A model generated the notes under the pieces. It saw only the letters and a program-made list of their open reading frames with translations, made no database searches and was not told where the DNA came from. The position numbers were made by a program, and so were the translations under genes. Shown piece after piece: positions 15,085 through 47,300 of a stretch of DNA of 64,000 nucleotides; position 1 is the first letter of the stretch, and each line of letters starts with the position of its first letter. Location of the stretch: the IMG/VR virus record IMGVR_UViG_3300042351_000809; one strand, written 5' to 3'. The stretch is from a virus.

Positions 15085-18000
15085 ATGAACAATCTTGAAG
15101 ATTTTAAATACATAAAAGGTTTTGGTGGAGGTGGAGCAAGTACAGCCCCAGCACCAACTGCTGCATTTGAAGATGCCGAGGGATTTGTATATGATGGACT
15201 TACTTATAACGTATATCAATTCGCTAAAGTAAAAGACCTTTTGTCAGAAGGACCAATTGGAGGTCTTCTTGAGGGGCAATATAGCTTTTCGGGTCAAGTT
15301 GGAGACCTAGGATTTAAAAAAGTTACTTATAATGAATACCCATCAGTTGTGGGCAGCGATGGAGAATCAAAATATTTAAGATCAGTTCAATGGAATCAAA
15401 CCCCTCTTTTAGACAGCCAAGATAAATACAACTTCCAGCAAATAAACATTCAAACAACCAATGGAACCCCAGAAGGGACTTCATCTGGAGGAGAGTTTGA
15501 CAATGTTTCTTATATTCGTTCAATAGGAGAGAGGCTTAGAGGTCCAAATTTACTGGCTTCAACTGAAGACGAAGCTCTTGACTATCAAAGAACTTATCGC
15601 ATTTTAAATAGGGAATGCAAAAAGATTTCTCTTAACTTTAGAATTTCTTCTCTTTATGTCAGTTTAAAATATCAGGATTTAAAACCAATATCAGAAGGCA
15701 CTTTAAAAATAGAAGGAGTAACAAGTGCTAATCAAAGCAGCAGTACATTTACATTAGATCCAACAAGTAGAGATGTTGAATTAACTAATGGAAAAACGTT
15801 AGATGCTGGCGTAGGTTCTGTAATCCGCCATAACTTTAAAATAAGAATTAGAATTTCTCCAATTTATAAAGAAGGCTATAATAGCAACTCCGCAGTGCTT
15901 GATCTAATTTCAGACAAAGCCAAAGTAATTGACGATTCTAAAGACTTAACTGTCACAGTAGACACTTTCCCTCAAATATTCGAACTAGAGTCGAAAGGAA
16001 AAATCACTCAAGGATATTCTAAACAAATTATTTTTGATACCTCTTCCAAGTTTCTCTCATTGAGCGAAAATGAAAATTGGCTAGGTTGGGATATATCAGT
16101 ATTAAAGATTACTCCAGAAGATACTTATTCTTCAAGAGCTTCTTTTATAAATCTAGAAAGCATTACTGAAATATACTCTTCTTCGTTTAGATATACAAAT
16201 TCTGCTATTGTAACTTCTAAGTTTAATGCTGCGTATTTCTCAAAGATTCCAGAAAGATCTTATGATGTTAAACTATTAAAGGTTAAGGTTCCTGCTAATT
16301 ATGATCCAATAACAAAAACCTATGGAAATACAACTCCACTTTCAATTACAGCCACTAATTCATTCGCTAAAACTGATAAAGTAATCACAACAGATTTCTT
16401 TATTGGAGAAAACAATGTATATACAAATTCAGACAATGTTAATCCTCCAATTACAGATGGACTAATTGCTCAGTTTGACGCAAGTAACGCTTCTTTAACT
16501 GCTTCAACAGGATCAGTAACTAATTGGCCCAATACTGTAGCTGGATCAACTATAAAATGCGTTTTAGGAAATGGAACTTACGCATCTCCAAATGGAAGTG
16601 CTAACAAGCCAACATATGGATCAACATATTCAGAGCAAAGCCCGAATGGAACTTATGGTGTTTCATTTACGACCACTCAGAAAGCAAGATTCGTTTACCA
16701 AACTGAAACAAGCCCATTAGCTGACGCTAGTAATAACTATACTGTATTTGCTGTCTGTAAATGGCACGACAGCGCAACTAACACAGAAAGGAATAGGATA
16801 ATTTCTTCTTATAGTTTGGAAAATACTTTTGTTTTGGGGTTTGATGGTAAATTTAATAATGCTTTTACCGTAGGTAGTCAAATCTATGGAGTAATGCCTG
16901 TTAATTTTTATCAATTTAATCGTTCTAATTATTGGAATGATGCCAATGATACAAATACCTATATCGTAGGAACAAGCGTAAGTAATTTAAAAGATGTAAA
17001 TATTTTCTGGCAAAATACTAACTACTTTGTAAGACCTATAAATGCAGTAGCTGCGCCAAAAGGTTTAGCTATTAATTCTTCAGCGAGTACAAGTAGATGC
17101 ACTGTTTTTGAAATATTGGTTTACAATAAAGCTTTATCAAAATCAGATGGAATCAAGATAAGAAATTGGCTAAATAAAAAATGGAATCTAATTTCTAGCA
17201 ATCTATCTTACTCTACATCTGTAGCTGGATCATATAATACAAACGTTCTTAATGTAGCATCAAACACTTATTTGAAGATGCCTCTTAAAACTCTATGCGC
17301 CAATGGACAAAGAACAAAGGCTTATAGTTATGCTGGAGGCAGTTTGGCTACTTCGGATTATTATGAATTTGATTTAATGCCTCAGAGATATTGGAAAAAT
17401 TGGAAAACCCCACAAAACTTTTCTTTAAAAGATCAAGGATTTTGCAGTTTTTATTGCGATTTCTTTATTAAACTAGGAAGCATTGGAGACGGAAATTATA
17501 CTCTAATTCATAGAAGTAATCAGTTTAATCTTTCTATGACTATATCTGGAGAAAATGTAAGTCTAATACTTACAGTTATTTCTCCAAATGAAAGCAAAAA
17601 TTACACCATAACAAAAGCCCTAGATCCAGCGAAATATTCAACAACCAAACTTAAAGAAAATTTCACAAGAATTAGTTTCTATATACTTCCAAAAGTAGTA
17701 AAACCAAGCATATCGTACACCACAAATGCAAGTAGAGTAAATAACATAAATATATCAGATAGGACTTGGACTAATGACTACATCACAGTCAGAAGAGCAA
17801 CGGCTGATGGAAACGAAAAAGCATTAGCACAAGAATTAAAAGATTTTTATTTAGTAAAAGCAGTAAGCTTTAAAGAAGACACTTCCTATAGTAGCGATAT
17901 TAATAACTTGCCAGAAACTTGTTATAAATATATATACTGCAATTTTAATTCAGCCACACAACAGACAGGAGGAAGGTCTTCAACTTTTGTTCCTGTTATT

Positions 18001-21000
18001 GAAAGAAGGCTTACTAAAGAATACTTCCCAGACATATTAAATGCAGAGATAGATGTTCTAGTTAACCTAGAAAAACAGATTCAATGCAATATAAATATTT
18101 CAAATTATGCTGCTTATCAAACTCTTTGTGTTGGAGCTTTATATAGACCCGCTACAGATCCTGTTTGGCAAAATGAAATAAATCAAAGGGCACAGATAGC
18201 TCCACTTGCTCAAGAAGCCTTAAATACCTACAATAAACAGGAATACCATAAAACATTCGACGGCTCTTCTACTTCAGTAAGTTTAAGCTCTTCTCAGAGT
18301 GAAGTTAAAGTGCTTATCCCTCTTGCTGCTGGACAAATTTACGACGCAGTAAATACAAAAACTGGACCTTTTATTCCTTCTTATTTCATAACTAATAATA
18401 ATCAAATAGAAATCTTTACATCACCCGCTGGTTTCGGCGGCAAAATAGAAGGCTATGCTGATTCTATTAGAGTAAATCAAATTGATTTTGATAGACTTTC
18501 TTTGTCTAAAGCATTTGCAAGAAATCTTTTCTCAGAAGGTCTTTCTAGGAAAACCACTGTTTATGATGTAGTAGGAGTTTTACCTTATTCTACATCAAAT
18601 GATTATTGGGATGGAGAATTTAAAACTGAAAAAGAATGGACGGATAATCCAGCTTGGTGCTTCTACGATCTTTTAACAAATAAAAGATATGGAGTAGGCA
18701 ACTATGTTACAGAAAATGACGTAGACAAATGGTCTCTTTATCAGATAGCTAAATACTGCGATGAGCTTGTCTCAGATGGATTTGGAGGAGTAGAACCAAG
18801 ATTTACATGTAATGTCTATTTGCAAACACAAGACGATGCTCTTAAAGTGTTGTCTGATATGGCTTCTGTATTTAGAGGAATGTTCTATTATTCAAATGGA
18901 TTCATTTACGCTATAAATGATATGCCAGAAGATACCCCTATTTATTCTTTCACTAATTCAAATGTATCTGATGGTAATTTTACTTACGAATCCACATCAT
19001 TAAAAGACAGAAATTCTGTAGTCTATATTAGATACATTGATAAAAATAATTTCTATAAACCAGCAGTAGAATATGTAGAGAATATTGAGGCTGTTAGAAA
19101 ATTTGGATTTAAAGAAACTGAATTAACGGCCTTCGGATGCACAAGCAGAGGACAAGCTCAAAGACTTGGCAGATGGTTATTGGCTTCAGAATACAATGAA
19201 ACAGAAACAGTTTCTTTTGAAGCTGGTCCAGAGTGCGTATACTTAAAACCCGGAGACGTAATTAAAGTTTACGATTACAATAGAAAATACAAAACAGTAG
19301 GCGGAAGATTAAATAATATTAACATTTCTGGAGACACAAATGTAACTACTGGAATACTAACTCTAGATAGAAAACTTGATTTTAACTTTTCTGGAAATCA
19401 AAATTATAAGCTAACCATACTTTCTCCCAAGTATAATCTAGATCCTAGTTTTAAAGACGCAGCAGGAAACAGTATCGTTACCAGTAACCTTGATTATAAT
19501 GACTACAGAAAGCCTCTTACTAATTCATTCATAGTAGGAAGCGGCAACTTAATTACTGGTCAATATTATGATTCAATTAGAATTACGGGTCTAGCACCAG
19601 TAATGGCTTCTGGATTAAACGTAACTGGACTATCTTATTTTACTGGAGCGTCTGGAATGTCTCCTAAATCAATAACTTGGGCTTTAGAAAACTCTGGAAA
19701 TCTTAATGGATCTACTGATAGCGATTATGATTTCTATAGAGTATTTAGAATACAAGAGTCTACGGAAGGAACTAACTATACAGTAATTGGTTCACAGATG
19801 TATCACTTAAAATATGCTCAAATAGAGTCTGGATTAAATATCACGCCAGCAAAACCACCAGCACCAGAAGCTTCTGCCCCTTCAAGAGCATTATTTACTC
19901 TTGGCGTTGCAGAGGCTAATGGAGTAATAGATCAAAGCAAAGTATTGATTGAAATCTTTTATGACTCTTCTATAAAAGACACTACGATAGGCTTCAAAAT
20001 ATTTAACAAAGCCTTTTATGGATCAGACTTTAACCCAAATAGCTCTAGTGATTTTAAATTTGTTCCAATCGATATTTATGAATCTTATGTAAACACTGTT
20101 CTAGACAAGAGCAACATCAAAGGTTCTATAAGAATTTATGGAGCAAATATTAATAATAGCTCTCCATTAACTTATGTTGAAGCTTCAAATTCTCAAAACT
20201 CAAATGAATTATTCGTCTCTCCAGTTGTTGCGATTACTTATGACGATGTAAACATAAACTCATCTATCACTTTGAATAATAAAGTTTACGGTTTTACTTC
20301 TCCGATTGATTTAACGAAAGCACAATACTTTCAGTCAACAACACCTTCTCAAATTCAATCTATTAAAGCTCCAGAGTCTTTGTCGTTCAACATCCCCTTG
20401 CAATTCATAAAGAATCCAAATAAATTCAACAATCTTGATTACCCTTATAGAATAGCAATAATACCAGAGAAAGTAGATACAAAAGATGCTTTTGGCACTG
20501 TTTACAACAAGTACCTTAATGTTTCAAACTGGGAAGACTATTTAACGTTTGATGAAGATCAAACTAGTGATAATATATATAACTACAAAACTTCAAATGT
20601 TTTTGCTAAGTACAGGAATTTCTCTTTGGCAATTGATAAAATGACATTTACAGATGTTGGAATGAAATCTACTTCTAATGATTTTAAGAATGTAGATGGA
20701 TTTTTACTAGTAACTTACGACAATCAAGACGCTGATTTAAAAACGTCTTTAAATGCAATTTTAAAAGATACAAGAGCGACTTACTCTATTGTCACAAGTC
20801 AAGGATCAAATAGATTAAAATTCACCATTCAGCAAGATACAGCGAGTTCTTTTATTAACGCTTTTTATCTATTACTAATCCCTAGTGAAAATATATTTGA
20901 ATTTGGAAAGAATTCAATAAATCACAATCCTGATGGAAGCCCATTGTCTGTTAACGATAATACTGGAAAAGAAATCGTTGACTCTCACTTTATAACAATA

Positions 21001-22449
21001 CCAAATAACCAATCTATATTTAATTTCAATGACTTAAGCGATGACAATGGTAAGGGATTTGATTCTACTCAATACAATGCTTATTTGATAGCTGTAGATT
21101 CATTCATGTTCGCTTGGCAGTTTAACTCAAATGCAGCAACAGCAAGAAATATCTTAGACTATTATTCTTCTTTCATTGATAAAGATAATAACATAGGTAA
21201 AATTTACCCTCAAATTAGTGACCCAATTGTTATAAAACAAGAATCATCTACTCCATTATCTTTCTCGTTAGAGTCTGTGTTGAAAGATGCTGATACTAGA
21301 TATCTGCATTTTACAATTAATAAGACTATACTAACTGAAAACATATTTGATACTAGCGTAAATACTCTCCCTTCGCCAGCTTATGCAATTTCTAGAAAGA
21401 GCGTAATTTATAAGCCTACTACAAACGCAAACTTAGCAGCAGGAGCTAAAGATGATAGAGTATTATCTTCAGATCCAGACGACACTATGGCTTATTATAA
21501 ACTCTCTTTACAAAATAGAGACAATATACCAAATGCGTCATTATCACCGAAAATACCCACTGGCAAGAGAGCTTATGTTTTAAATGGTAATAAAATTTTT
21601 ACAAGAGCTTTAGTTGCTGACGCGAACGCTACTTCTTTAAGAGCAGTAGAATCAGAAACAGCCAATGGCTTTAAGTCTAAAGCTAAAATAACCAATAGCT
21701 CTTTTGGCGAAGGAAACGAAGAGTTTTTTGACATCTCTATAACAAGATTAACTAACAGCACGTTTACTGGAAATATAAAGAGTTTAATTCCTGATTATAC
21801 AAATACTTATCTAATTCCTATAAATGCCTCAAATTCGAATACTGAAGAAAATGCGAAAAGCAATTTTAATAGTTTATTAAATGACGGATTGCTCAATTCA
21901 TCTTTTAATGCTGTAAACGTTACTCCTGAAAATAATTTTTCTGAACTTGGAGTCAATACTAAAAATGTTCAAATGCTGATAAATGCAGAACCAAACAATT
22001 TCACTGTTTATACTATAAATCAGCAAACAGCTAATTCGTTTAATTTTGGTATAGCAAATTCTTCTTTCTATGCTGGAGTTCCAGTATTAGAAAATGAATC
22101 TTTGTCTATTTTCTTTACAATTGGAAACGTTAACAAGACAAAAGCTATAAAGGTATATTGCTTTATTGGAGAAGATTTTGTGGCTAGTGAAGTAGATAAA
22201 ACACAAATAATACCGGGAGACGATAACGTAATTAGGGTTACATTAAAAAATGTTCCTTATGCAAATTATTACACCAACGCTTCTTCTTATTCTGCTAATG
22301 CATCAATAACTAATCCAACTTTCTGGAAATTCAAGAGTGCCAAAAATTTAGCCTTCGCACATTTGTCCGCAAGATCTAACGGTAGATTATTTCCATTATA
22401 CAATTTCCATATCCAAGCACTAGAACTATCAATAGTAATAACTTACTAA
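15085..22449 (+). CDS. Central tail fibre / host specificity protein J (lambda gpJ-like) with a ~760-aa insertion
   Basis: LSEGPIGGL, IPERSY...VPANYDP, WDGEFK...DNPAWCFYDLLTNKRYG, YCDELVSDGFGGVEPRFTCN, FGCTSRGQAQRLGRW. Confidence 0.9.
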   Translation: MNNLEDFKYIKGFGGGGASTAPAPTAAFEDAEGFVYDGLTYNVYQFAKVKDLLSEGPIGGLLEGQYSFSGQVGDLGFKKVTYNEYPSVVGSDGESKYLRSVQWNQTPLLDSQDKYNFQQINIQTTNGTPEGTSSGGEFDNVSYIRSIGERLRGPNLLASTEDEALDYQRTYRILNRECKKISLNFRISSLYVSLKYQDLKPISEGTLKIEGVTSANQSSSTFTLDPTSRDVELTNGKTLDAGVGSVIRHNFKIRIRISPIYKEGYNSNSAVLDLISDKAKVIDDSKDLTVTVDTFPQIFELESKGKITQGYSKQIIFDTSSKFLSLSENENWLGWDISVLKITPEDTYSSRASFINLESITEIYSSSFRYTNSAIVTSKFNAAYFSKIPERSYDVKLLKVKVPANYDPITKTYGNTTPLSITATNSFAKTDKVITTDFFIGENNVYTNSDNVNPPITDGLIAQFDASNASLTASTGSVTNWPNTVAGSTIKCVLGNGTYASPNGSANKPTYGSTYSEQSPNGTYGVSFTTTQKARFVYQTETSPLADASNNYTVFAVCKWHDSATNTERNRIISSYSLENTFVLGFDGKFNNAFTVGSQIYGVMPVNFYQFNRSNYWNDANDTNTYIVGTSVSNLKDVNIFWQNTNYFVRPINAVAAPKGLAINSSASTSRCTVFEILVYNKALSKSDGIKIRNWLNKKWNLISSNLSYSTSVAGSYNTNVLNVASNTYLKMPLKTLCANGQRTKAYSYAGGSLATSDYYEFDLMPQRYWKNWKTPQNFSLKDQGFCSFYCDFFIKLGSIGDGNYTLIHRSNQFNLSMTISGENVSLILTVISPNESKNYTITKALDPAKYSTTKLKENFTRISFYILPKVVKPSISYTTNASRVNNINISDRTWTNDYITVRRATADGNEKALAQELKDFYLVKAVSFKEDTSYSSDINNLPETCYKYIYCNFNSATQQTGGRSSTFVPVIERRLTKEYFPDILNAEIDVLVNLEKQIQCNINISNYAAYQTLCVGALYRPATDPVWQNEINQRAQIAPLAQEALNTYNKQEYHKTFDGSSTSVSLSSSQSEVKVLIPLAAGQIYDAVNTKTGPFIPSYFITNNNQIEIFTSPAGFGGKIEGYADSIRVNQIDFDRLSLSKAFARNLFSEGLSRKTTVYDVVGVLPYSTSNDYWDGEFKTEKEWTDNPAWCFYDLLTNKRYGVGNYVTENDVDKWSLYQIAKYCDELVSDGFGGVEPRFTCNVYLQTQDDALKVLSDMASVFRGMFYYSNGFIYAINDMPEDTPIYSFTNSNVSDGNFTYESTSLKDRNSVVYIRYIDKNNFYKPAVEYVENIEAVRKFGFKETELTAFGCTSRGQAQRLGRWLLASEYNETETVSFEAGPECVYLKPGDVIKVYDYNRKYKTVGGRLNNINISGDTNVTTGILTLDRKLDFNFSGNQNYKLTILSPKYNLDPSFKDAAGNSIVTSNLDYNDYRKPLTNSFIVGSGNLITGQYYDSIRITGLAPVMASGLNVTGLSYFTGASGMSPKSITWALENSGNLNGSTDSDYDFYRVFRIQESTEGTNYTVIGSQMYHLKYAQIESGLNITPAKPPAPEASAPSRALFTLGVAEANGVIDQSKVLIEIFYDSSIKDTTIGFKIFNKAFYGSDFNPNSSSDFKFVPIDIYESYVNTVLDKSNIKGSIRIYGANINNSSPLTYVEASNSQNSNELFVSPVVAITYDDVNINSSITLNNKVYGFTSPIDLTKAQYFQSTTPSQIQSIKAPESLSFNIPLQFIKNPNKFNNLDYPYRIAIIPEKVDTKDAFGTVYNKYLNVSNWEDYLTFDEDQTSDNIYNYKTSNVFAKYRNFSLAIDKMTFTDVGMKSTSNDFKNVDGFLLVTYDNQDADLKTSLNAILKDTRATYSIVTSQGSNRLKFTIQQDTASSFINAFYLLLIPSENIFEFGKNSINHNPDGSPLSVNDNTGKEIVDSHFITIPNNQSIFNFNDLSDDNGKGFDSTQYNAYLIAVDSFMFAWQFNSNAATARNILDYYSSFIDKDNNIGKIYPQISDPIVIKQESSTPLSFSLESVLKDADTRYLHFTINKTILTENIFDTSVNTLPSPAYAISRKSVIYKPTTNANLAAGAKDDRVLSSDPDDTMAYYKLSLQNRDNIPNASLSPKIPTGKRAYVLNGNKIFTRALVADANATSLRAVESETANGFKSKAKITNSSFGEGNEEFFDISITRLTNSTFTGNIKSLIPDYTNTYLIPINASNSNTEENAKSNFNSLLNDGLLNSSFNAVNVTPENNFSELGVNTKNVQMLINAEPNNFTVYTINQQTANSFNFGIANSSFYAGVPVLENESLSIFFTIGNVNKTKAIKVYCFIGEDFVASEVDKTQIIPGDDNVIRVTLKNVPYANYYTNASSYSANASITNPTFWKFKSAKNLAFAHLSARSNGRLFPLYNFHIQALELSIVITY

Positions 22450-23152: not shown

Positions 23153-23980
23153 ATGACGGATGTATTATTTTCTTTTGGCGACGAATACATATATTCTAAC
23201 AACCTAGCAAACTGGTCCACAATAGAACCCAGTAAAGAAATAGAAATTATTGGCAACCCAGAGAAGTTCTCCGTTGTGCGAACTGCTGTCATTAATTACA
23301 GCAAGCCTTTTACTGTAGAGTCAAATTCTTTAATTAAATTTAGCGGTACAATTAAAGATCTAATTTTAGATGGAGATACTATTGATTGTTATTTTACTCT
23401 TTACTATGCTGCATTAATTAATGATATTACTGAATCTGGATCTGGATATAAAGTAAATGAATATGTAACTATTGGTAAAAATTCTTACTTTGAATCGTCT
23501 ATAGATAAAAACCAAAAAGCTGTCCTTCAAATTAAAGCTGTCAATAGTGATGGTGGTATTACTGAACTCCATTTAATTAACAATGGAAAATTTACTCAAA
23601 ATTTTACTGAAGCAGAATTAGAAGGCGGATCTGGTAAAGGCGCAAAAGTAAGCTTGATTTTGGGCAAAGACAACAAGAAGGCTCTCAAGTTTTTTTCTGT
23701 ATTAGACGTAAAGCGAGAAAACGCTTCTACTCTTGTAATGTTAAATGAAAAGATTAAAGACGACTTCCTTACAGGAGAAGTCTATATAAAACGATACCGC
23801 ATTACATTAAATAAGGCTACGGGTAAAGAATACTTGAATCAAGCATTTATTGTAAAGGTAGAGAAAACTCCTTTCCTTAATCTACCATTAGCCAAAGACA
23901 ATAATATAGAGCAAATCTATAATCAGGCTATACTAACTATAGACTCTAAGATTAAAGAATTATCTGCTGGCGTAAAGTAA
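23153..23980 (+). CDS. Hypothetical structural protein with GSGY-type beta repeat
   Basis: ITESGSGY...DGGITELHLINNG...GGSGKGA; last gene of the tail-tip block, overlapping the TMP end convergently. Confidence 0.4.
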   Translation: MTDVLFSFGDEYIYSNNLANWSTIEPSKEIEIIGNPEKFSVVRTAVINYSKPFTVESNSLIKFSGTIKDLILDGDTIDCYFTLYYAALINDITESGSGYKVNEYVTIGKNSYFESSIDKNQKAVLQIKAVNSDGGITELHLINNGKFTQNFTEAELEGGSGKGAKVSLILGKDNKKALKFFSVLDVKRENASTLVMLNEKIKDDFLTGEVYIKRYRITLNKATGKEYLNQAFIVKVEKTPFLNLPLAKDNNIEQIYNQAILTIDSKIKELSAGVK

Positions 23981-26900
23981 TCCTCCGGGTCTCTTCTGCT
24001 CGACCAATACTTCAACGACTTTGCTTCTGAGCAGTTCAGCAAGTTTAGCATTGTTTTGAATATTGTTCTGATCTTTGTTTGTATTAGAGCCGCCATTTTG
24101 AGTGGTAGCATTAGCTTCAGAAGTGACTTCGCCAGTCTGAGCAACATTAATTGAAATGTTATTAACTACAGACATTCCAGATTCTTGATTTGCTCCAGCA
24201 GCAGAAATTTTACCTGACTCAGCTTGGGTGATGTCATTGCCCTTGGAAAGGTTTTCATTCAATGTATTAAGAGCAGCGACTAGTTCGGTCACGCTAGATT
24301 CAGGCGTATTTTGACCTGCTGTATAGCTTGTGCCAACCATTCCGCCACTGGCATACTTAGGCAATGTGCCAGTATTTAATTGATTCATGAAGTCTCTGCC
24401 GTACATATCTACAGCTTTCTTGTTCATGACATATTCACCACCCATTAATAAAGCAGGAATATTATCTTTGCCTGTTGATCCACCACCAGCAAATCTAGCT
24501 ATATAGCCGCCATTTGATCTAAGATTTCTTGCATATTGAGCATTTAATTGAGCTTGAGTTAAGTTACCTCCGGGTTCTAGACCTCTTGCAGCAGACGCTG
24601 CTGCACTAGTTCTCATATTAGCTGCTCCGACTGTAAGACCAGCAGCACCCAATTGAACAGCAGCAGCAGTTAGACCTGAATAGAAAGTGCTATTTACTTG
24701 ATTTTTATAATTTTTAATAGCTTGTTGTTTGTCTTTCTCATACTGCGATCTGTCTTGCAAGTATTGATCAAGTTTTTCATAGCGATCTTGTCTTAGTCTA
24801 TTTTGAGGATTATTCTCGTCAGTTAAAGCTGCGGCTGATAGTCTAGAATCAACAGCAAACTCTCCAGAAGTTGGACGATCAGGATTGTCATATAAGAACT
24901 CATTTTGCAATGGCCCCATTGAGAACCCGCCTACTGCATATTTGGGAACAAGTCCGCCATTCAAGGCTCTTAAATAATCAGAACCGTATTTTTTAACAGA
25001 AGACTTTTTGATGACGAACTCACCGCCACTCATCATAGCAGGTACATCATCTTTCATTCCAGAGCCGCCAACGACCATACCTCCAGAATTATAGCCCCTG
25101 ATTAAGCCACCGTCTTTTCTGCCAGTTGCAGCAGCTTTGCCAAAAGCGAATAAAGCATCAACTCCCATCTCTAAAGACTTATCAAGCATTCTATTCAAGA
25201 TGCCTTGGAACATATCTCTAAATGCATCCTTAAGTGTCTTAGTTCCTTTGATGGCTTCACCAAATGCACTAGCAATTCCTGATTTAAAATCAGTTTGAAA
25301 AGTATCAATTAATTGACCAGTATCTCTGGCAAAATCAGCTCTATTATAAGTAGTATTCTTTTCAGTAATACCTCCAAAATCAATATTACCAAGTCGAGCT
25401 TGATCTTCTATGCGCCTATTCATTACGGCGGCTCTTTCTTCTTTAAAGAATGTGTTGCTATAAGCTGAATCGTAGAATCTCTTTACTTCTTCATTAGTCT
25501 TTTTTAAGCGTTCGGTTATTTTTTCTCTCTCATCAGCTATTTGCATTTCTAATAACAATTGATCAGCAAGATCTTTGTCGCCTTCTCCATAAATTCTATT
25601 AATCTCTTCTATCTTTTTATTCTTTTGAATTTGAATGTTTTCTTGCGTTTTAGCTAAAGCTTTTTCAGCATCAATTAAGCTTTGAGGCTTTATAGGCGTG
25701 ATTGAAGAGGTATTTTTATTCGAAGCATTAAATTCATAAAATCTAAAACCGGAAGCAGCGGCAGGAGCATTAGTCTTATTAGAAATATTAAGGGCGGTAG
25801 ATGTTTGAGATTGATAAAGCTTGGCCAAAATAGAGTTTAAATTCTCAAGAGGTATATTTATCTTAGAAGCCAACCTTTCTCTACCCGTCTGTTCAGCTTG
25901 ACTAAAAGGCCCAGTATCATTTGCGCCTAATGGTAAACCTGAGCCACTAGGGCTATAGCCTCCAAAAAGAATATCTGGATTTACCATTTGTGACTTTATC
26001 TCTGTCAAAGCTTTTTCTCTTTCAATAACCGAAGCAATTGGTAATAAATTCCTAATCTCTTTTTCTAATTCTACTCTATTTTGAGTGGCAACTATTTCTT
26101 TTAATGCTGCGCTTAGTGAAGAATTCAATGCATCTAATTTTGCGCCTACTTGTTGAGTAGTTATTCTTTCGAAATTTGCATTAATATCAGGAGCTTGTTT
26201 GGCTAAAATCTCTGTTTGAGTTTTTGCTAATTCATTTGCATACTTACTTTCTTGAGCTAATAAATCAAAATAAGTACCAATATTCTCCAGCTTTAACTGA
26301 GAGGTTACTTGGTCGATTGCTATACTTACCGCATCTTCATTTAACTTATTAAAAGCTTCATCTAAAGCTCCACCAGCTTGAATACCTGTTCCTGTTTGAG
26401 ATATTAAACTAATGTTCGTTAGTTTTCTAAGTCTTTCATTTTCTTTTCTAATTTGTCCTGCCCTTGCAGATATAGAAGCATTTTCTAAAGGAGCTAATTC
26501 TGCGCCGACTCCTCCACCTCTAATTCCATATTGATTAGAAAGAGTATCTAGTAATTTAAAGAAACCTGATCCTGTTTCTATTGGATTTCCAACCCTAACA
26601 TTTTGCCCTAAGCTAGAAGTCAATTCAGTTAATTTATCAAACAAATCAGAAACTCCAACTTGACCAGTGCTTCCTAAAGATGCTGCGCCACCAGCTAAAG
26701 AAATCTTTTCGTTTAACTGTAAAGATCTTCTTTGATAATCAGAATTTATCTTTTGAATAGCTAAATCAAATTTTCCTTGCTCAGTAATTTTAGTTAATTC
26801 ATTTAGAACTCCTTCAAAAGTATTTTGTAGCTCTCCTGCGATTAATTCAGCTTCTGGTTTTTTGAAAAGACCTGTCTCAGAAATTCCTTGAATTAGTTTA

Positions 26901-29900
26901 TTTTTTACTTCTTCTATATTGCCGCCAGAACTTAATTCCTTTAGAGAAGTCGAGATAAGAGGCGAAATACCTTGTATATTTTTATTGAAAGTATTTAATT
27001 CTTTTGTGATATCATCTGGGCCTTTTGATGTATCTGTTATTGCTGGCAAAGCTTTTGATCTTATATCTTCGGCCTTCTTTGTAATAACATCTGTTAAAGA
27101 AGACAAACCTTTATCTAAAGCATTTCTTACTTCAGAATTTTGCTTATTTTGTATTTCAGTAATTGCTAAATTAGCTTCTTGTTCTGCCCTTCCTCTTTCG
27201 CTCATAAAAGGAGAAGCCAAACTTAAAGCACCTCTTACTCTTGCAGTAGCTAATTGCACAGAGCCTTCTGCCTGTATCTTATTTAAATCTCTAAGAGTAG
27301 ATGCTCTATTTTTCTCAGCTTCAATCTGAGAAGAAAGAGATAGATTTAAACTTTCATAAGCTTGATTTAAATCTTTTATTGTCTCTGCATTTTTTCTTGC
27401 TATTTCAATATTTTGTTTCTGAACTGCCAAAAGGTTATCTGAAGCTTGCTTTGAACTAAAAATACCTTTTCCAAATTCGTCAATTGCATCAAATAAAGCA
27501 TTTACGTTTTCAGGACTAATTTTCTTAGAAACCTCTTCGAATTTAGCAGCTAACTCTGGTCCGAAAATTCCTTTAGCCTCTAATTGAGATCTTATTCCTT
27601 TTAAAGCTTGCTCATTAATGACTGTTTGAGTCACCATCCTTGGGGCTGATTCTAAGTCTATGCTTTCGGGGCTACTAGTGTAATCTACATAGTTACTAGT
27701 TTTAAAAACTTGGCTTCTTAGACCGCTAACAAAACTTCCGAATTCTCCTGCGCCACCCTTAAAGCCAGAGAGAATATTTTGAGGGTTTACAGATTGAGTA
27801 AATAATCTAGACAACTGCTCTTGATCAGATTTCTTCAAAGTACTTCCAGCAAAAAAGCCCGTCTTATCATTTACTAACTGAGTAATTGCCAATTGTCTTT
27901 CTAAATTCTTTTGAGAATCTGCCATTTCTTTATTAACCTTAGCAATCGCTTCAGATACCTTGCCAATATCTGTTCCTGCGGCCAAAATCTTAGCTCTGAA
28001 TTCTTCTGGAATTGAAGCAAGAGAATCAGTAATGCTTGTTTGGAATTTTAATAAAGCTTGAGGTTGAGTTTTAGGATCATTCAAAGCGTTTTGCAAATTC
28101 TCTAAAGAAGTTGCATAGGTTTGCGATGCTCCAGAAAATTTAGAAGAAGACTCCTTAACTCTATCCAAACTTGTAGAAATATCAAAAATAGCTTGTTCAG
28201 CTTTTGAATCTACTATTTTTTTAGAAGCAACTCCAATTCCAACCAAAGCACCAGCAGCAAGACCAATTGGCCCAAATGCAGCACCTAAACCCGCATATTG
28301 ACCGACATCTGCAATACCTGAAAGCGCCGCTCTACCTGTTTTATTTGATTCTGGAACAAATTGTTCTGCAATATTAGCTACCCCTGCAATTGCTAATCCA
28401 GCACCAGTACCAGAAGTCCTAATCAAGGAATTTAATCTCCCTCCCTCTCTTAAACTTAAAGGATTAAGATAACCTGCTGACGCAATTCTTTGCTCTCTGG
28501 AAGCTCTTGAAGCTATAGCTCTTTGTTCTTCTACTCTGGCTCTTATGCTTTCAAATTCTGCAATTTGTTTTGGATTGGCAAATCTTCCTCCAGTAGTTCT
28601 AAGCCTTCCAGTAACATTTAAATCAGCATCTATATTAGAGAAACTAAACTTCGATTGAGCCTCTTTTCTTAGTTTCTTAATAGAGTTTGCGCTTTCAGCA
28701 ACCTCAGTTCTCTTGTTCTTTATTAGGTTTTGACTTTGAGCATTTATCTCTTTAAAGCTTCCAGCTAAAGATTTTAATTGCCCTCCTAAAGCTATAAGTG
28801 AAAATGTTACCATTGAAATATCAAACTTATCAGCAAAATTAGGAATAAAACCCTCTGCCATCCCTTTAGTTTGAGGATTAACTCCAGCTTTCCTTGCCAA
28901 AGAAATTCCATTTTCTAGAGTCCCTTCGGTTGTGTTATAAACTCCTAGGCCAATTGGATTAAATGATGATTTTAATTGACCACTTTGTCCTACTCTAATT
29001 TGAGAAGCAGAATAACCTGCCGCCATTTCGTTATTTATTGCATTTGATAAAGCATTAAAATTAGGAATAAAGCCAAGAGCCTTTTTGCTACCGGGAGCAA
29101 TACTTTTAACGATTTCTGTGACTTTAGCTCCAGAAGCTTTTAGTTTAGAAGCTTCGGCTGCGATATCTACTGAACCAGCTTTTGCTCTTGCCTCATCTTC
29201 AAATATTTTAATAAATCCTCCAAATTCAGATTCAATCTTTTTTACAAAACTAGCTTCACTATAGTCATCGTATCTGAGTTTGTAGTCTCCTAATGGACTA
29301 GTAAATCCGGGAAATAAATCACGAAGTTTAGCAATATTTTCTCCTCTTCTAATGTCAAAATCTCCTCTAGCTTGACCTTGTGGCTCTCTAACATAATCTC
29401 TTGAAAGATTAACTCCAGCTTCAAATATTTTTCCTGCAAATTGTGCTGCTGGATTTTGAACGGCATTAAGATATTTTTTTCTTGATTCTTCAGTAGCCTT
29501 TTGTCCTCCGGGTAAACTATTGGCAAATTCACTTAATAATTGATTAGCGAAAGAATCAGATCTTGATCTTAAATCTACTTGAGAATTTTGCAAAGCTTCT
29601 TTGCTAAGATTAACAACTTTAAAAGCAATAGGAACATTTCCAGCACCTCTTCCTCTTTGTACTATTTTCCCAGACATTTCTGGGCTTTCTAAAGTTAACA
29701 TGTCTGCCTGAGCCATATATGGAGGCAGTTGAGTGACCTGTCTTCCTACTTCTCTTTCTAAAGCAGCTTGTTTTGGTAACCAGTCTGGTTTTTTAGAAAT
29801 TCTTCTAATTTCTTCAATAGGAACTCCGCTATCATAAGCTCCATTTAAAGTAGCATTAGTCCATTTACCGCCAAGAGTACCATCTGGATTTAATACAGCA

Positions 29901-31852
29901 GTTTTATATTGACCTCTTGCTTGACCAGCAGTAAGCCACTGTTCAACTGTAGGAGCAAAGTTAGGTACATAACCAGTAGCCATATAAGGATTAATTCCTG
30001 TTTGACTCATTGAGCGAGAAGCTAATGAAGAAGCTGCTTTTGAACCTGCTGGAGGGAGAATAAATGGCTGACTAAATCCGGGAACATATTTTACTGTTTC
30101 GGCAGTATTCATTATTCCACCAATAGAAGCAGGAGCATTAACTACATTACCAGCGACATAACCACCTTTAGTAGCAGTCATGATTTCTGACATTCTATCT
30201 TGAGGAGGAATATAGCCTCCAGCAGATCTTCTAGTTACTGATCCTGAACGAGAAACACCCAATCCTCCTGTAATCAAAGATTTGGAAATAGAAGTAGAAG
30301 AAACAGCTATTTGTTGAGACAAAGCAGATTGCTCAACCAGTATTTGTTTAATTTCTTTTTCTACTTGAAGACGAGTTTTTGAACCGGCAATAATCGCAGA
30401 TATTAGATCAGGATTGCGAGATAATATTTGAGATACTTCTCCTTGTACAACGGCTTGTTGTTGAGCTACAGTATTTAATCCTAATAAGTTTTTAGCAGCA
30501 TCTCCAGTAAACTTACCAAAGTTAGCAAAAAGCTTTCCTAATACTGAAGCTCCAATTATCAAACCGGGGCCAGTAATAAAATTAGTAATACCAGTTAAAA
30601 TTCCTGTTCCAATTTTAGCTCCAACGCTCTCTGAGTCTTTTTCATTAATAGAAGATAGCTCTTCATTTATATATCCCAATATTTTTCTAATACCGGGAGC
30701 AACGCTTACAGATCCTACTTTAGTTGCAAATTGGGTTACATTAGCAGTGGTTTCGCTTAGAAGAGCAGATAAACTTTCATTTAAAGCTTTATTTTTTACG
30801 ATAGCTTCATCAACGGCTCTTGAAGAAGCATTTGTCGCACCTGCAAATATAGAGTTTTCTTTAGAAAGATCCGCCAAAGAAGCTTTTAAAATGTTAATCT
30901 GATAAACGCCACCAACTAATTCAGCGACTTGAGATTTAACAACTGGACTCAAGCCTTGGAAAGATTGAGCTAAATTTTCAATAACTTTTATTGCTGGAAG
31001 TGCATTACCAGAGATATCGGTTACAGTAACTCCAAAATCTCTTAAATCATTAATAACTTGAGGTCTCTCTATTCTTGTGAAAATTGTTTTTAAAGCGTTA
31101 CCGATAACAGCACCACCACGGGCAGTTGTCTGTTGAACAGCGGTAACAATACCTAGTAGTTCATCGAAGCTAACTCCTGCCTCGCTTGCAGAAGAACCTA
31201 CACGTTGAATAGCTTCAGAAAGGTCTCTTGAACTAACAGCAAATCTAGCGTCAACAGCAGCTAATTTATTAACAACTTCAGTAGTTGTAAGAGCTTCTTT
31301 TGTAAAAGAGTTTACAGCGGAAGTCAAGGCTTCAGTACTAGAAACGACATCAAGACCAGATAGACGAGTAAGAATTAGAGCGTCTCTTGTTCTTTTTAAA
31401 GTCTCTTGCAAACCCAAGCCCTGTCTTGAGAATTCCGTAGCGGCAGTTGCTACGTCTTTAAAGGAAGAGCCTGTTTGTTTCGCTACAACGAATAACTGAT
31501 CACCAAACTGCTTAATTCCTTTACTAGAAGTGTTTAGAACAATATTTATATCTGTCAGCGATTTTTCTACCTCAATAGTAGAGTTTACTAATGCGCTAAA
31601 AGCCTTCTGTACGTTATAAATAATGCCAGCAGAAGCACCGAATGCGACTACACGGGCATTGGAAGCTTCTAATGACTTTTGGAACTCGTTAGCTAGACCA
31701 GTAATTTTGCCAAGCGGTTGAGAGAAATTTCTCGTATTTAGGTTAAGAGCGCTTTTGCTCTGGATACGAGTTAACGCTGCCAACACATCTTTTTCAAGCT
31801 GGGCAGAGTTAAACGTCGCTGAAATGGGAATATTTCCTGCTGATGTAGCCAT
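23960..31852 (-). CDS. Tail tape measure protein (TP901-type core), 2630 aa
   Basis: N-terminal TP901 core (EFSRQG...LTRLSGLD...IGNALKTIFTR), long helical Ala/Leu-rich body with hydrophobic segments, C-terminal DxVPAMxxGGEFV repeats. Confidence 0.92.
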   Translation of the reverse strand: MATSAGNIPISATFNSAQLEKDVLAALTRIQSKSALNLNTRNFSQPLGKITGLANEFQKSLEASNARVVAFGASAGIIYNVQKAFSALVNSTIEVEKSLTDINIVLNTSSKGIKQFGDQLFVVAKQTGSSFKDVATAATEFSRQGLGLQETLKRTRDALILTRLSGLDVVSSTEALTSAVNSFTKEALTTTEVVNKLAAVDARFAVSSRDLSEAIQRVGSSASEAGVSFDELLGIVTAVQQTTARGGAVIGNALKTIFTRIERPQVINDLRDFGVTVTDISGNALPAIKVIENLAQSFQGLSPVVKSQVAELVGGVYQINILKASLADLSKENSIFAGATNASSRAVDEAIVKNKALNESLSALLSETTANVTQFATKVGSVSVAPGIRKILGYINEELSSINEKDSESVGAKIGTGILTGITNFITGPGLIIGASVLGKLFANFGKFTGDAAKNLLGLNTVAQQQAVVQGEVSQILSRNPDLISAIIAGSKTRLQVEKEIKQILVEQSALSQQIAVSSTSISKSLITGGLGVSRSGSVTRRSAGGYIPPQDRMSEIMTATKGGYVAGNVVNAPASIGGIMNTAETVKYVPGFSQPFILPPAGSKAASSLASRSMSQTGINPYMATGYVPNFAPTVEQWLTAGQARGQYKTAVLNPDGTLGGKWTNATLNGAYDSGVPIEEIRRISKKPDWLPKQAALEREVGRQVTQLPPYMAQADMLTLESPEMSGKIVQRGRGAGNVPIAFKVVNLSKEALQNSQVDLRSRSDSFANQLLSEFANSLPGGQKATEESRKKYLNAVQNPAAQFAGKIFEAGVNLSRDYVREPQGQARGDFDIRRGENIAKLRDLFPGFTSPLGDYKLRYDDYSEASFVKKIESEFGGFIKIFEDEARAKAGSVDIAAEASKLKASGAKVTEIVKSIAPGSKKALGFIPNFNALSNAINNEMAAGYSASQIRVGQSGQLKSSFNPIGLGVYNTTEGTLENGISLARKAGVNPQTKGMAEGFIPNFADKFDISMVTFSLIALGGQLKSLAGSFKEINAQSQNLIKNKRTEVAESANSIKKLRKEAQSKFSFSNIDADLNVTGRLRTTGGRFANPKQIAEFESIRARVEEQRAIASRASREQRIASAGYLNPLSLREGGRLNSLIRTSGTGAGLAIAGVANIAEQFVPESNKTGRAALSGIADVGQYAGLGAAFGPIGLAAGALVGIGVASKKIVDSKAEQAIFDISTSLDRVKESSSKFSGASQTYATSLENLQNALNDPKTQPQALLKFQTSITDSLASIPEEFRAKILAAGTDIGKVSEAIAKVNKEMADSQKNLERQLAITQLVNDKTGFFAGSTLKKSDQEQLSRLFTQSVNPQNILSGFKGGAGEFGSFVSGLRSQVFKTSNYVDYTSSPESIDLESAPRMVTQTVINEQALKGIRSQLEAKGIFGPELAAKFEEVSKKISPENVNALFDAIDEFGKGIFSSKQASDNLLAVQKQNIEIARKNAETIKDLNQAYESLNLSLSSQIEAEKNRASTLRDLNKIQAEGSVQLATARVRGALSLASPFMSERGRAEQEANLAITEIQNKQNSEVRNALDKGLSSLTDVITKKAEDIRSKALPAITDTSKGPDDITKELNTFNKNIQGISPLISTSLKELSSGGNIEEVKNKLIQGISETGLFKKPEAELIAGELQNTFEGVLNELTKITEQGKFDLAIQKINSDYQRRSLQLNEKISLAGGAASLGSTGQVGVSDLFDKLTELTSSLGQNVRVGNPIETGSGFFKLLDTLSNQYGIRGGGVGAELAPLENASISARAGQIRKENERLRKLTNISLISQTGTGIQAGGALDEAFNKLNEDAVSIAIDQVTSQLKLENIGTYFDLLAQESKYANELAKTQTEILAKQAPDINANFERITTQQVGAKLDALNSSLSAALKEIVATQNRVELEKEIRNLLPIASVIEREKALTEIKSQMVNPDILFGGYSPSGSGLPLGANDTGPFSQAEQTGRERLASKINIPLENLNSILAKLYQSQTSTALNISNKTNAPAAASGFRFYEFNASNKNTSSITPIKPQSLIDAEKALAKTQENIQIQKNKKIEEINRIYGEGDKDLADQLLLEMQIADEREKITERLKKTNEEVKRFYDSAYSNTFFKEERAAVMNRRIEDQARLGNIDFGGITEKNTTYNRADFARDTGQLIDTFQTDFKSGIASAFGEAIKGTKTLKDAFRDMFQGILNRMLDKSLEMGVDALFAFGKAAATGRKDGGLIRGYNSGGMVVGGSGMKDDVPAMMSGGEFVIKKSSVKKYGSDYLRALNGGLVPKYAVGGFSMGPLQNEFLYDNPDRPTSGEFAVDSRLSAAALTDENNPQNRLRQDRYEKLDQYLQDRSQYEKDKQQAIKNYKNQVNSTFYSGLTAAAVQLGAAGLTVGAANMRTSAAASAARGLEPGGNLTQAQLNAQYARNLRSNGGYIARFAGGGSTGKDNIPALLMGGEYVMNKKAVDMYGRDFMNQLNTGTLPKYASGGMVGTSYTAGQNTPESSVTELVAALNTLNENLSKGNDITQAESGKISAAGANQESGMSVVNNISINVAQTGEVTSEANATTQNGGSNTNKDQNNIQNNAKLAELLRSKVVEVLVEQKRPGGLLYASR

Positions 31853-38101: not shown

Positions 38102-38929
38102 TTAAGCATTATCTCCAGTTGGAACTGGTGGAGGAGGAGGTGGAGGAGTTGGCTCATTTACAGTTACGATAGCAAGATCACTCTTTACAGATCCAGCAAC
38201 ATTGCTAACTGTTACAGAGTAATTTCCAGAATCAGAGATTTGAGCATTCGTAATTTCAAAAGCACTTCCAGTGGCAGCTAGAATAATCTCACCATTTTTA
38301 TCCCATTGGAAAGCAAATGGCTGATCTCCCATAACTCCCACGTTCAAGTAGCCAACCCCACTGACCATCAAGTCAAGATTTTGAGGCTGAGATGTAATTA
38401 CTGGAGCTTGGAATAAATTCAATGAAGCGTTAGAGCTAGTAATTGAACCTGCTGGATTGTTGATCTTAACATTATAAGAACCCAAATCTCCAGTTCCAAC
38501 AGTTGGTATAGAATAAATTGAAGAAGTCGCTCCTTCGACATCTGATCCATTTTTAACCCATTGATAACTTAATGGAGAATCACCGCTTGCCACTACGGAA
38601 AATTCAGCAGCTTGTCCATCTAGAACTTTTTGATCTACTGGTTGAGAAGTAATAAATGGAGCAATAGCTTGAGTGTATCCTAAATTTTCTAATACCACAT
38701 TCTTTACATAATCATAATCGGCTGTAGCAGTTTGCTCAGGTGGCCAGTCTTGCCAGTCGTCTCCTGCAAGATTAGTAAAAGTTTTATCTAAAACTAGACC
38801 TGCTGGATTTTTCATTACAACTGAAAATCTTATTCCTTCATGAGGATCAAATGCATTAAAATCAACACAAAGTTCTGTCACATTTGCGCCAGATGGCTTT
38901 GGATAAACGGGGATAAATATTGTATTCAT
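38102..38929 (-). CDS. Protein with two immunoglobulin I-set-like domains and a poly-proline tail
   Basis: APFITSQP...LSYQWVKNG...DLGSYNVKINNPAGS and APVITSQP...FQWDKNG...DSGNYSVTVSNVAGS; ends PTPPPPPPPVP. Confidence 0.85.
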   Translation of the reverse strand: MNTIFIPVYPKPSGANVTELCVDFNAFDPHEGIRFSVVMKNPAGLVLDKTFTNLAGDDWQDWPPEQTATADYDYVKNVVLENLGYTQAIAPFITSQPVDQKVLDGQAAEFSVVASGDSPLSYQWVKNGSDVEGATSSIYSIPTVGTGDLGSYNVKINNPAGSITSSNASLNLFQAPVITSQPQNLDLMVSGVGYLNVGVMGDQPFAFQWDKNGEIILAATGSAFEITNAQISDSGNYSVTVSNVAGSVKSDLAIVTVNEPTPPPPPPPVPTGDNA

Positions 38930-44312: not shown

Positions 44313-47300
44313 TTATTTGAATAATGGTATGTAAACTGTATCTGCGGGACTAAGCGCCCCAGTCTGTATTGGCATCCATCCAACGAAAGTTTTACCAGCA
44401 GTACCTCCTGCGGCTCCTGCAAGCATAGCAGATTCTACTCTCAGGACTGGATTAAGACCATCACCTTTAATATGAAGCCTTGCGGCGACGGGAGAAGCCC
44501 CAATTCCCACATTTCCATCATAATTAAAATTAACAGTATTTATCCACGCATTTGAAGAGTTGTAAGCCCAAAGAGCTAAATTTGTACCTGCGGCATTTGG
44601 TTGAAAATTGTAAGCTCTACTATTCGCTGCGTTTGCTAAATATAATGTAGAAGAGATTGAATCAGAGCCATTTTTTAGGACTCTCGCTCCAAGGTCTGCA
44701 CCTCCTACTGTTAAAGTATTTGTAACTACAAAGCTGCCATCTGTTTTAAGTTGACTTGTTGACGATCTATAAATATTAGCCGCAGAATCTGCTCCAAAAG
44801 TTATACCACTTGCAGCCGATGTTGAACCGGCACCGCCAACACCTAAGATTGTAGCTGAATTCGACAAGCCTATTCCAACGGTTCCTGCAAAGAATCTATT
44901 TCCGGGTTGATAAACTTTTATAACTTTCCATCCAGAAATACGACAAGCCCTTGTTCCAGTTCCTGCTGTGTAATTAAATAAAGCTAGAGGAGTCCAATAT
45001 TTAGTACCTGCTTTAAATTGACCAATTGTATTCGAAAATCCACCAATATATCCAGTTACTTTAATCCAGCTAGTACCGGGATTATAATTACTCATTACCC
45101 AATAACCATAAGAACCGGGATTGCCTCCTAAGTTGCCAAAATTTTGATCTAAGTCTTGACTTCCCATGTAGTGGCCTTGAGCCGTTCCTACATTTTGTAT
45201 CCAGCACTCCATGTAGAAAACATCATTAGTATCTACTGGAATATATGGGAAACCAGAACCATATGGTCCCCCAACATCAACTGAACCATTAATATAAATA
45301 CAATAACCACCGGGAGCATCAGCCACTGCCTCCCAAGTGACATTAGAATTGTTAAAATATCTTTGAAGTTCAACTTGACTCCAAGTAGGATCTATTTCAA
45401 AGACGGTTTCTCCTGCGGCATAATGTCCAACTGGATAAAGCTCAGTATTGTCAACCCTAGTATTTGTTCTTAAAATTCCCCCTCTAACATCTAATTTTTC
45501 AAATGGACTTGTAGTGGCTATTCCAACATTTCCATTGCTTGCATCAATACGCATTCTTTCAGTTGAGCCACTAGCATAGAATCTTAAATGAGCCGCAGTA
45601 GCGCCGTTACTATTATAATTAACATACATTCCATCCGTATTAACGGTAGATTCATTTCTAATAACTCTTATATTAGCGTATATATCATTAGCATTAGATG
45701 ACGTATTTAATACTGAGACTGCTCCAAACCTTAGAATATTTGCAGAAGCAATACTCATGTCTCCACCAGAAACAACCAATCGATAAGCAGGATTTGTAAT
45801 TCCAATACCTACATTGCCTAAGTTATCAATTCTTACTCTTTCTGTATGCTCAAGATCAAATGCAGAAGTATGCAATGCAATACCAACTTTTCTATTATAA
45901 CCAGCACCACCAGCAACATCTTCTTCTGAAACAGCATATATAGCAGCAGTTTTTGAATTAGTATTTGGACTATCAATACTACCATTTAATTTAATACCCC
46001 ATTTTGCATTATTATTTGAATTAGAAGCTGGAACAGCATTAAATGGAGCAGTTAATATTAAGAAATCATTAACCCTACCAGCATTCATGTATGCATTAGC
46101 AGATGCAGTATCTAATTGTATTCTAGAACCTGTAGGAGTAGTTTCTACAACATGTAATTTACTTGTAGGAGTAGATATATTTATACCAAAATTTCCACCA
46201 TTCTTTAATGTAACTTGTTGAGATCCAGATCCTGCTGCGCCGAGTATTACATCTCCACCATTTGTATGTAGACGAACATCATTTGTTCCAGCCGCTCTTC
46301 TTATTCCATGAGATTGATTGCCTAAGAAAAATCCTCCTTCTACGGAATTGCTATTTACATCAGACACAACAAAGCCTCTAACATCTAATTTTTGAGAAGG
46401 CGTTGATGCTCCAATTCCTACATCTCCAGCAGTAGTGATATTAAATCTATTTGCAACACCATTAGCATGAAATGCGAAACCTCCATTGCTACTATACAAA
46501 TTCATCGAATCTGCGCCACCCCAACTTGTACTGCTTCTATTTTTAAAGAACTGAGCATTACCATTGCTAGTGGTCCAAACTATATTTGTAAATAATGTAT
46601 TATTAGTACTACCTAAAATTAATCCAAATGCAGTTTGATTATTATAAAACCTAACTGCGTCTTGATTTGTGCCATATACATCTAATTTATATTGAGGATC
46701 TGTACTACCTATGCCAACATTACCAGCACTAGTTATGCGCATCTTTTCTGTTGGCAAAGTGTTTGTAGCATTAGTTGCAAATACCAAAGATTGACAATTA
46801 TCACCTGCGCCTCCTAAGTCTATTCTTCCTCCAATGTAAGAATAAGCATTTGAATTAGTTGTTGTGTTAGTGAACGCAAGCACAGAAGCAGTATTAAAAA
46901 CATTAGATCCAGCGGTGCTGCGCATCCTTGTAATTATATTAACTGCGGCATTTGTTCCAGCCCCAACAATATCTAATTCGTATTCAGGATTATTTGTTCC
47001 TAATCCTATCTTATTGTTAGCCAAAACAAAATCATTCGCACCATACTGACCCATTACAATTCTGTCATCTGCGAATACTTCAAGCACAGGCAAACCTGCG
47101 CTATTATTTACAGACATTAATGAATCAGACAAGTCATCAACAACTGAGAAAAGTATTCCATTTGTACCATCTGCTCTAAGAACAGTTTCGCCAGCTACTG
47201 AAGAAACCACATGAAGCTTGCCGCTCGGAACATTTGTTCCTATTCCAACATAACCTCCTTGATTGAATCTAATTGCTGATAACCAAGCATTTCCTGCGAC

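Follow-up and report, generated by a model that had tools for sequence, protein, structure and literature searches.

What occupies the middle of a giant phage tape measure protein (TMP)? TMPs are usually seen as rulers, sometimes with one wall-degrading domain. We analyzed a TMP gene in IMG/VR virus record IMGVR_UViG_3300042351_000809, taken as one 64,000-nucleotide stretch of DNA (the window), and found that the middle of this ruler is a standardized slot, made of paired small units and one hexapeptide, which holds different folded modules across hundreds of uncultured phages. The architecture of the slot, its conservation, and the mosaic exchange of its contents were observed in sequence comparisons. 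The best explanation for the whole, which we hold with modest confidence, is a TMP with a built-in slot in which exchangeable modules travel as cargo, the peptide at their borders serves as a hinge or processing site, and the module carried by this phage, module B, is an enzyme.

The gene, P0001, encodes a giant TP901-type TMP. Its product matched PF10145 (E value of 3e-30, 106 bits; cutoff, 33.2), TIGR01760 (E value of 9.5e-34, 116.9 bits; cutoff, 28.8) over residues 81 to 424, and 13 PHROG TMP families (best E value, 2.6e-46), which bears out a first-pass annotation of the window in which the protein had been called a TMP. The parts of the gene that concern the slot are as follows.

23960..31852, minus strand: TMP gene P0001, a single open frame of 2,630 amino acids (aa)
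30581..31612, minus strand: conserved TP901-type TMP core, residues 81-424 (TIGR01760), 59-97% identical across relatives
29957..30220, minus strand: opening unit A1, residues 545-632, with GGYIPP at its start and GYVPNF at its end
30203-30220, minus strand: GGYIPP, residues 545-550, a degenerate junction peptide in the TMP frame
29957-29974, minus strand: GYVPNF, residues 627-632 (motif 2), in the TMP frame
29075..29956, minus strand: module B, the "cargo" insert, residues 633-926, between A1 and A2
28835..29074, minus strand: closing unit A2, residues 927-1006, with GFIPNF at both its start and its end
29057-29074, minus strand: GFIPNF, residues 927-932 (motif 3), in the TMP frame
28835-28852, minus strand: GFIPNF, residues 1001-1006, in the TMP frame

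The first-pass annotation had listed four copies of the junction peptide. All four are in frame and three of the ranges were exact, while the fourth, 30206-30220, spans the five codons of GGYIP and not the six of AGGYIP. The motif was not found elsewhere in the six-frame translation of the window, and the codons of its copies within the window differ synonymously, which points to selection at the peptide level. A search with query residues 540 to 1012 yielded 543 giant TMPs of 1.4 to 4.6 kaa (thousand amino acids), of which 126 were scanned for the motif and 121 were cut at it. The loose form [AS]xG[FY][IV]PN[FY] occurred 536 times in the 126 related TMPs, compared with a mean of 1.2 in shuffled sequences, so chance is excluded. 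The logo reads [AS]-x-G-[FY]-[IV]-P-N-[FY]-[ASN], with G and P present in 100% of copies and N in 94%. In an AlphaFold2 model of residues 545 to 1007, the motifs fell in stretches with predicted local distance difference test (pLDDT) values of <50 between folded parts. The junction peptide is probably flexible. Among 8.4 million open papers and preprints, the motif strings had a single match, an irrelevant one.

A1 was modeled as a small alpha+beta unit (pLDDT of about 70 to 82) and has many invariant residues. It had been proposed that the array contains two copies of a unit of about 75 aa. This relationship was weak in a pairwise BLASTP comparison of A1 and A2, where only the last 20 residues aligned (E value of 1e-4), but clear when alignments of the two units were compared as profiles with hhalign (probability of 96.6%, E value of 6.7e-10, 74 columns). 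Hidden Markov models (HMMs) of the units were then used to count them in the 126 TMPs. Exactly one opening-type unit was present in 115 and none in 11; exactly one closing-type unit was present in 116, two in 5, and none in 5. One opening unit followed by one closing unit, in that order, was the arrangement in 109 of the 126. A search for A2 in shorter proteins outside the giant TMPs returned only TMPs or TMP fragments. One such shorter protein, P0144 (795 aa, on a 44-kb JGI contig), begins inside a junction peptide (VPNFAES...), with the TMP core missing; either a frameshift or an assembly error has split a TMP here, or the gene is truly split at the motif.

Cutting the 121 TMPs at the motif gave 404 intermotif segments, which formed 79 BLAST clusters. 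The commonest cluster was the small unit (161 copies of 59 to 98 aa). After the small units, the largest family was module B, found in 87 of the 121 TMPs in a sample that the query biased toward B. An HMM of the B core had one match each in 101 of the 126 TMPs, and the remaining 25 carried other modules instead. The units enclosed from 1 to about 10 modules, which belong to many unrelated families and are combined and ordered in many ways; with each cluster given as a letter, examples are A-B-A, A-C-I-?-K-W-X-A, J-T-C-A, and U-C-T-?-O-A. The motif also fences the borders between two non-A modules. These arrays bear out the proposal that the motifs are module borders, and they show that different domains fill the slot: there are 79 clusters, 25 of the 126 TMPs are without B, and a relative, G001, carries a GHKL-ATPase-like module. 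The slot is variable among relatives.

Close relatives of P0001 differ in a manner that follows the peptide. P0006, which is 71 to 94% identical to P0001 segment by segment along the TMP, has a 116-aa module inserted between B and the closing unit, exactly from GFI/PNF to GFV/PNF. P0007 is 97% identical to P0001 over the N-terminal 544 residues, 91% in A1, 88% in A2, and 93% beyond, compared with about 60% in module B; the drop sets in just past motif 2, within a few residues, and ends about 30 residues short of motif 3. Segment 301-544 (window positions 30221-30952) occurs in two allele classes (91 to 97% versus 66 to 70% identity) that assort independently of the alleles of B, and all four combinations of the two classes of this segment with two classes of B were found (P0002, P0003, P0007, and P0008), which indicates recombination between the segment and B. 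In related phages, modules are added, lost, or replaced at the peptide with the reading frame kept. The suggestion that the motif is a recombination border has support only at the protein level, from an indel that runs motif to motif and from the break in identity at the motif.

Could this simply be the ordinary middle of a fast-evolving, indel-prone TMP, in which the motif is merely the conserved edge of A-type units? TMPs are known mosaics with internal repeats, and the whole of P0001 is mosaic: allele classes are found outside the array, in residues 301-544 and 1701-2150, and P0026 is 98% identical to P0001 over the last 480 residues and about 40% identical in the rod. An ordinary region of this kind would not account for a motif that also separates pairs of non-A modules where an array has as many as about 10 modules, for an indel in P0006 that runs exactly from motif to motif, for 536 motif occurrences versus 1.2 expected, or for modules that are confident folded domains and not coiled-coil repeats. 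We consider this explanation, already disfavored, to be very improbable.

An addition to B in the slot was found in G001, the nearest virus record compared (21% shared 31-mers), whose TMP is 3,625 aa long. It contains one additional module.

L010:3479-5878, plus strand: extra module of about 800 aa in the G001 TMP, between module B and the closing unit

This module matched HATPase_c_3 (E value of 5e-5, 23.8 bits) and HATPase_c (E value of 6.5e-5, 23.8 bits) just below the Pfam cutoffs of 25 and 26.4, respectively. Its ESM Atlas score against clusters of viral HATPase_c_3 was 0.97, with 193 shared features. The Bergerat motifs are present in order as ESLQN (N-box), DVGTG (G1, DxGxG), and GLSGFGMG (G2, GxxGxG). 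A search of PDB sequences with the module gave no match. From its motifs, the module looks like a GHKL-type ATPase, and such an activity would point to the cytoplasm, where there is ATP, as the place in which the module acts.

In P0001 itself, the slot holds only module B. The first-pass annotation had described an insert at 29081-29953 (residues 634-924, 291 aa) as globular looking, with GKIFE, GDFD, and GDYK in the order expected for a PD-(D/E)xK nuclease. We modeled the B core with AlphaFold2 from a 40-sequence alignment and counted conservation in alignment columns over 79 aligned TMPs, which are otherwise 12 to 35% identical.

29165..29788, minus strand: folded alpha/beta core of B, residues 689-896, 208 aa (AlphaFold2 pLDDT of 85.3, predicted template modeling score [pTM] of 0.78)
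29420..29434, minus strand: GKIFE, residues 807-811; G807, F810, and E811 invariant (79/79); midhelix in the model
29354..29365, minus strand: GDFD, residues 830-833; F832 96%, D/E833 96%, D831 73%; at a short strand in the model
29279..29290, minus strand: GDYK, residues 855-858; D856 97%, K858 93%; strand 166-170 of the core model
29237..29239, minus strand: K872, 99% (76/77 sequences); in the long helix after GDYK

The core was predicted to have a three-stranded sheet together with several helices; DFD and GDYK lie at short strands, and the last element is a long helix. The insert is modeled as an alpha/beta domain and not as coiled coil, and the three motifs are present in the order given. 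The residues of the E...D...DxK series (E811, 100%; D/E833, 96%; D856, 97%; K858, 93%) are among the best-conserved positions of the B family, whose members otherwise share only 20 to 35% identity. Judged from these columns, they make up an enzyme-type or ligand-binding signature whose order fits E...D...DxK.

Assignment of module B to the PD-(D/E)xK superfamily was not supported. The corresponding explanation is that B is a PD-(D/E)xK nuclease injected by the TMP, freed by cutting at the GFIPNF peptides, and directed at host or competing DNA. The conserved series has the expected order and context, with E811 in a helix, D/E833 at a short strand, D856-x-K858 in the next strand, and a further conserved lysine, K872, in the following helix, all at 93 to 100%. 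Two restriction enzymes appeared in the fold lists with alignments that cover all the motifs, PspGI (Z score of 3.4; 114 residues; root mean square deviation of 4.2) and Bse634I (Z score of 3.1; 106 aligned residues), and the neighboring module in G001 resembles GHKL-type ATPases, a class that often acts on nucleic acids. Against this, conservation of D831 reaches only 73%, the D and DxK strands are separated in the model by a helix in place of the hairpin of the canonical fold, and the searches gave no match above noise. The insert and the two units had no match in Pfam (E values up to 10), NCBIfam (E values up to 1), or PADLOC. A profile of the whole TMP alignment matched only coiled coils and two TMPs among PDB sequences, with no nuclease. 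Foldseek searches of PDB and BFVD with the 463-aa model and with the 208-aa core gave no match, and the best ESM Atlas score for the B core, 0.78, was uninformative. A wide VIA-align search and a second look gave nothing above a Z score of 4.4, which is below the usual chance level. Over the four fold searches, then, no score exceeded 4.4 and the restriction enzymes (3.1 to 3.4) lay inside the noise. PD-(D/E)xK members are often too divergent for detection by HMMER. Since PspGI and Bse634I scored no better than STING or Rab folds and no family model matched, membership is unproven, and we regard an injected PD-(D/E)xK nuclease as unlikely.

Other assignments were tried and dropped. STING-like (Z scores of 3.0 to 3.4) and Rab-like (Z score of about 3) folds for B, and a MinE-like fold for A2 (Z score of 4.3 over 42 residues), were set aside as noise. 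A Pol-beta-type nucleotidyltransferase (G...DxD) was rejected on account of the 73% conservation of D831 and a spacing that is too long. An exhaustive phmmer search with the insert against 1.84 billion representatives returned 9 matches; all were giant TMPs, which indicates that the insert has no stand-alone homologue among them.

How might the slot work? In the explanation that we favor, A1 and A2 follow the N-terminal core and bracket a slot for one or more independently folding modules, each module border being a near-invariant and probably flexible junction peptide. The slot of this phage holds a single module, B, a predicted alpha/beta domain with the enzyme-type charged residues E811, D/E833, D856-x-K858, and K872. 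At infection, the modules would go out of the tail as cargo together with the TMP. The junction peptide would act as a hinge or processing site through which each module comes to work on its own, an idea that draws on the cut TMPs known from T5 and lambda, and B would be a metal-dependent enzyme acting on a phosphoester substrate, with nucleic acid as the leading guess.

A bolder version, of which we are rather doubtful, makes the junction peptide a cleavage signal, either for Asn-dependent self-cleavage between N and F or for a host or phage protease. The TMP would then be an injected polyprotein that delivers exchangeable enzymes. In this version, a large clade of uncultured aquatic phages would have the tail lumen as its delivery route, enzymes (nuclease-like here, a GHKL ATPase in the relative) would be released in the host at DNA entry, and the A1/A2 bracket would form a natural platform into which cargo is plugged. 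Asn-dependent self-cleavage occurs in the tetravirus coat protein (between N and F) and in the FlhB/YscU family (between N and P), examples that serve as a lead only.

The closest parallel for cutting is T5 pb2 (pb2* plus pb2C), a TMP with an enzyme domain that is expelled at infection; its cut falls after R1127, with the hydrophobic stretch on one side and the peptidase domain on the other (Linares et al. 2023, PMC10038345). When the pb2 cut site, NSFVPR/AEGG, is set beside the junction peptide G-F-[IV]-P-N-F, F-V-P is common to both and the cut would correspond to the N/F bond. HMMs of the units and of the C-terminal repeat of the TMP (described below) gave no significant match to T5 pb2, so the link is one of resemblance only, not of homology. 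The two also differ in layout: pb2 has one C-terminal domain, located at the tail tip, while the array lies in the N-terminal third of P0001, and pb2 has neither a repeated junction peptide nor opening and closing units. The T5 enzyme, moreover, is a known metallopeptidase. Lambda gpH is also cut; T5 and lambda are the only phages whose TMPs are known to be cut, and in lambda the site and the protease were not known as of 2025 (PMC12617516).

Several points weigh against the cargo explanation. No peptidase family was found in P0001 or in two multimodule relatives, and no protease was found among the neighboring genes. The motif has no more than F-V-P in common with the T5 cut site, and pb2 is not matched by the unit profiles. 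The abrupt identity break in P0007 is known at the protein level only, and the relatives were gathered with a query that contains module B, which biases the frequency of B. Cutting, ejection, and enzymatic activity of the modules are putative. The lumen of a tail tube is about 4 nm wide, so three (or six) copies of a folded 200- to 300-aa module should not fit side by side.

That difficulty is not peculiar to cargo, for the fit of folded modules in such a lumen is explained no better by the main rival. In that account the peptide stays uncut and is a docking or packing element for a repeated partner (the tail-tube lumen, an assembly chaperone, or other junction peptides); A1 and A2 form a clasp from which the modules loop out while the ruler stays unbroken, and the modules have a structural or regulatory role in the tail (e.g., as a plug or a DNA-end binder) and are not injected effectors. 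A clasp that joins the two ends of an insertion would suit an array with, nearly always, one of the homologous units at its start and the other at its end (109/126), and a conserved short linear peptide in disordered linkers is what a binding motif could also look like. The failure to find a protease and the restriction of known TMP cutting to T5 and lambda (PMC12617516) fit as well. Packing material, however, is hard to reconcile with a GHKL-ATPase-like module and with the enzyme-type site in B, and fixed structural partners would not be expected to vary freely in module number and order. We see docking as rather unlikely; it and the cargo explanation do not exclude each other.

The system is a variant of things already known, on the one hand TMPs in which functional domains are embedded and on the other phage proteins that are delivered in polyprotein-like form. 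Mycobacteriophage TM4 Mt3 and its relatives reportedly have wall-hydrolase motifs embedded in their TMPs, an account attributed to Piuri and Hatfull in 2006. The likeness is a nonruler functional domain inside a TMP that is dispensable for tail assembly and acts at infection. Mt3 is said to differ in having single recognizable motifs (Rpf-like or peptidase), with no fencing peptide and no evidence of a multimodule slot, whereas the modules here, unlike wall-hydrolase motifs of the TM4 type, are mostly without a known family.

Polyvalent proteins are large, have variable effector-type domains, are delivered with the DNA, and have been proposed to be processed into units (Iyer et al. 2017, PMC5512222). 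Variable combinations of modules in one large TMP may be a comparable arrangement, and delivery would be a further likeness. Polyvalent proteins are of the head or pilot type, however, and TMPs are not mentioned in PMC5512222. Their processing is ascribed to an embedded MPTase peptidase, of which none was found in P0001 and the two multimodule relatives, and no shared junction peptide was described for them (PMC5512222).

If the modules are delivered, the slot would represent a general tail-borne route by which ready-made proteins enter the host ahead of the DNA, comparable to that of polyvalent and pilot proteins. It would also supply a catalogue of dozens of unknown module families, probably concerned with early infection or counterdefense. 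For laboratory phage-host systems, a natural design rule by which tails could be loaded with cargo would follow from the junction peptide and the A1/A2 bracket. The cutting of TMPs, both its reason and its mechanism, becomes a question that can be tested on a conserved motif; the lambda site was not known as of 2025 (PMC12617516).

Outside the slot, the TMP has the following further features. The array is flanked by two hydrophobic Gly-rich segments.

30524..30580, minus strand: segment 1, hydrophobic and Gly rich, residues 425-443, before the array (Kyte-Doolittle peak of 1.56, 19-residue window)
28211..28282, minus strand: segment 2, hydrophobic and Gly rich, residues 1191-1214, after the array (Kyte-Doolittle peak of 1.84)

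The rod downstream of the array (positions 1040 to 1900 of the TMP-alignment profile) matched SMC and other coiled coils as well as the solved TMPs 8zdo_S and 8iyk_H. Nearer the C terminus, there are two copies of a Gly-rich repeat, at residues 2248-2317 (24902-25111, minus strand) and 2448-2517 (24302-24511, minus strand), of the form GG.I..[YF]..GG ... D.[VI]PA[ML][ML].GGE[FY]V ... YG ... LN.G..PKYA.GG. This repeat is conserved in the TMPs of the whole clade and matched PHROGs 3547, 13338, and 35029 and the solved TMP 8zdo_S. The last residues of each copy, L-V-P-K-Y-A or T-L-P-K-Y-A, are similar to the junction peptide.

The phage is an uncultured aquatic one of about 170 kb. A protein identical to P0001 is encoded on nine metagenomic contigs, the longest of 171 kb. 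A tblastn search of 50,697 phage records with the region gave no match, and no cultured member was found. Genomic matches to the array were confined to contigs of metagenome-assembled genomes (MAGs) from lake and marine samples (L011-L023). These MAGs are labeled Paceibacterota, Flavobacteriales, Gammaproteobacteria, Halobacteriovorax, and Neomarinimicrobiota; since the labels are mutually incompatible, the contigs are probably misbinned phage and indicate no host.

The window is AT rich (GC content of about 0.33 to 0.38), with densely packed long open reading frames (ORFs). ORFs neighboring the TMP gene matched tail protein, tail fiber, and minor tail protein PHROGs, and no protease, tail tube, or sheath was found among them in Pfam and PHROG scans. 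A 275-aa protein (38102-38929, minus strand) matched tail protein, major tail protein, and Hoc-like (Ig-like) PHROGs and, from these matches, may be a major tail protein with a decoration domain; no sheath or tube family was recognized in the ORFs between its gene and the TMP gene. Four further giant ORFs lie at 44313-52133 (minus strand, 2,606 aa), 52138-59937 (minus strand, 2,599 aa), 15085-22449 (plus strand, 2,454 aa), and 2909-8419 (minus strand, 1,836 aa). The first of these, the 2,606-aa ORF, has tail fiber PHROG matches and eight repeated stretches.

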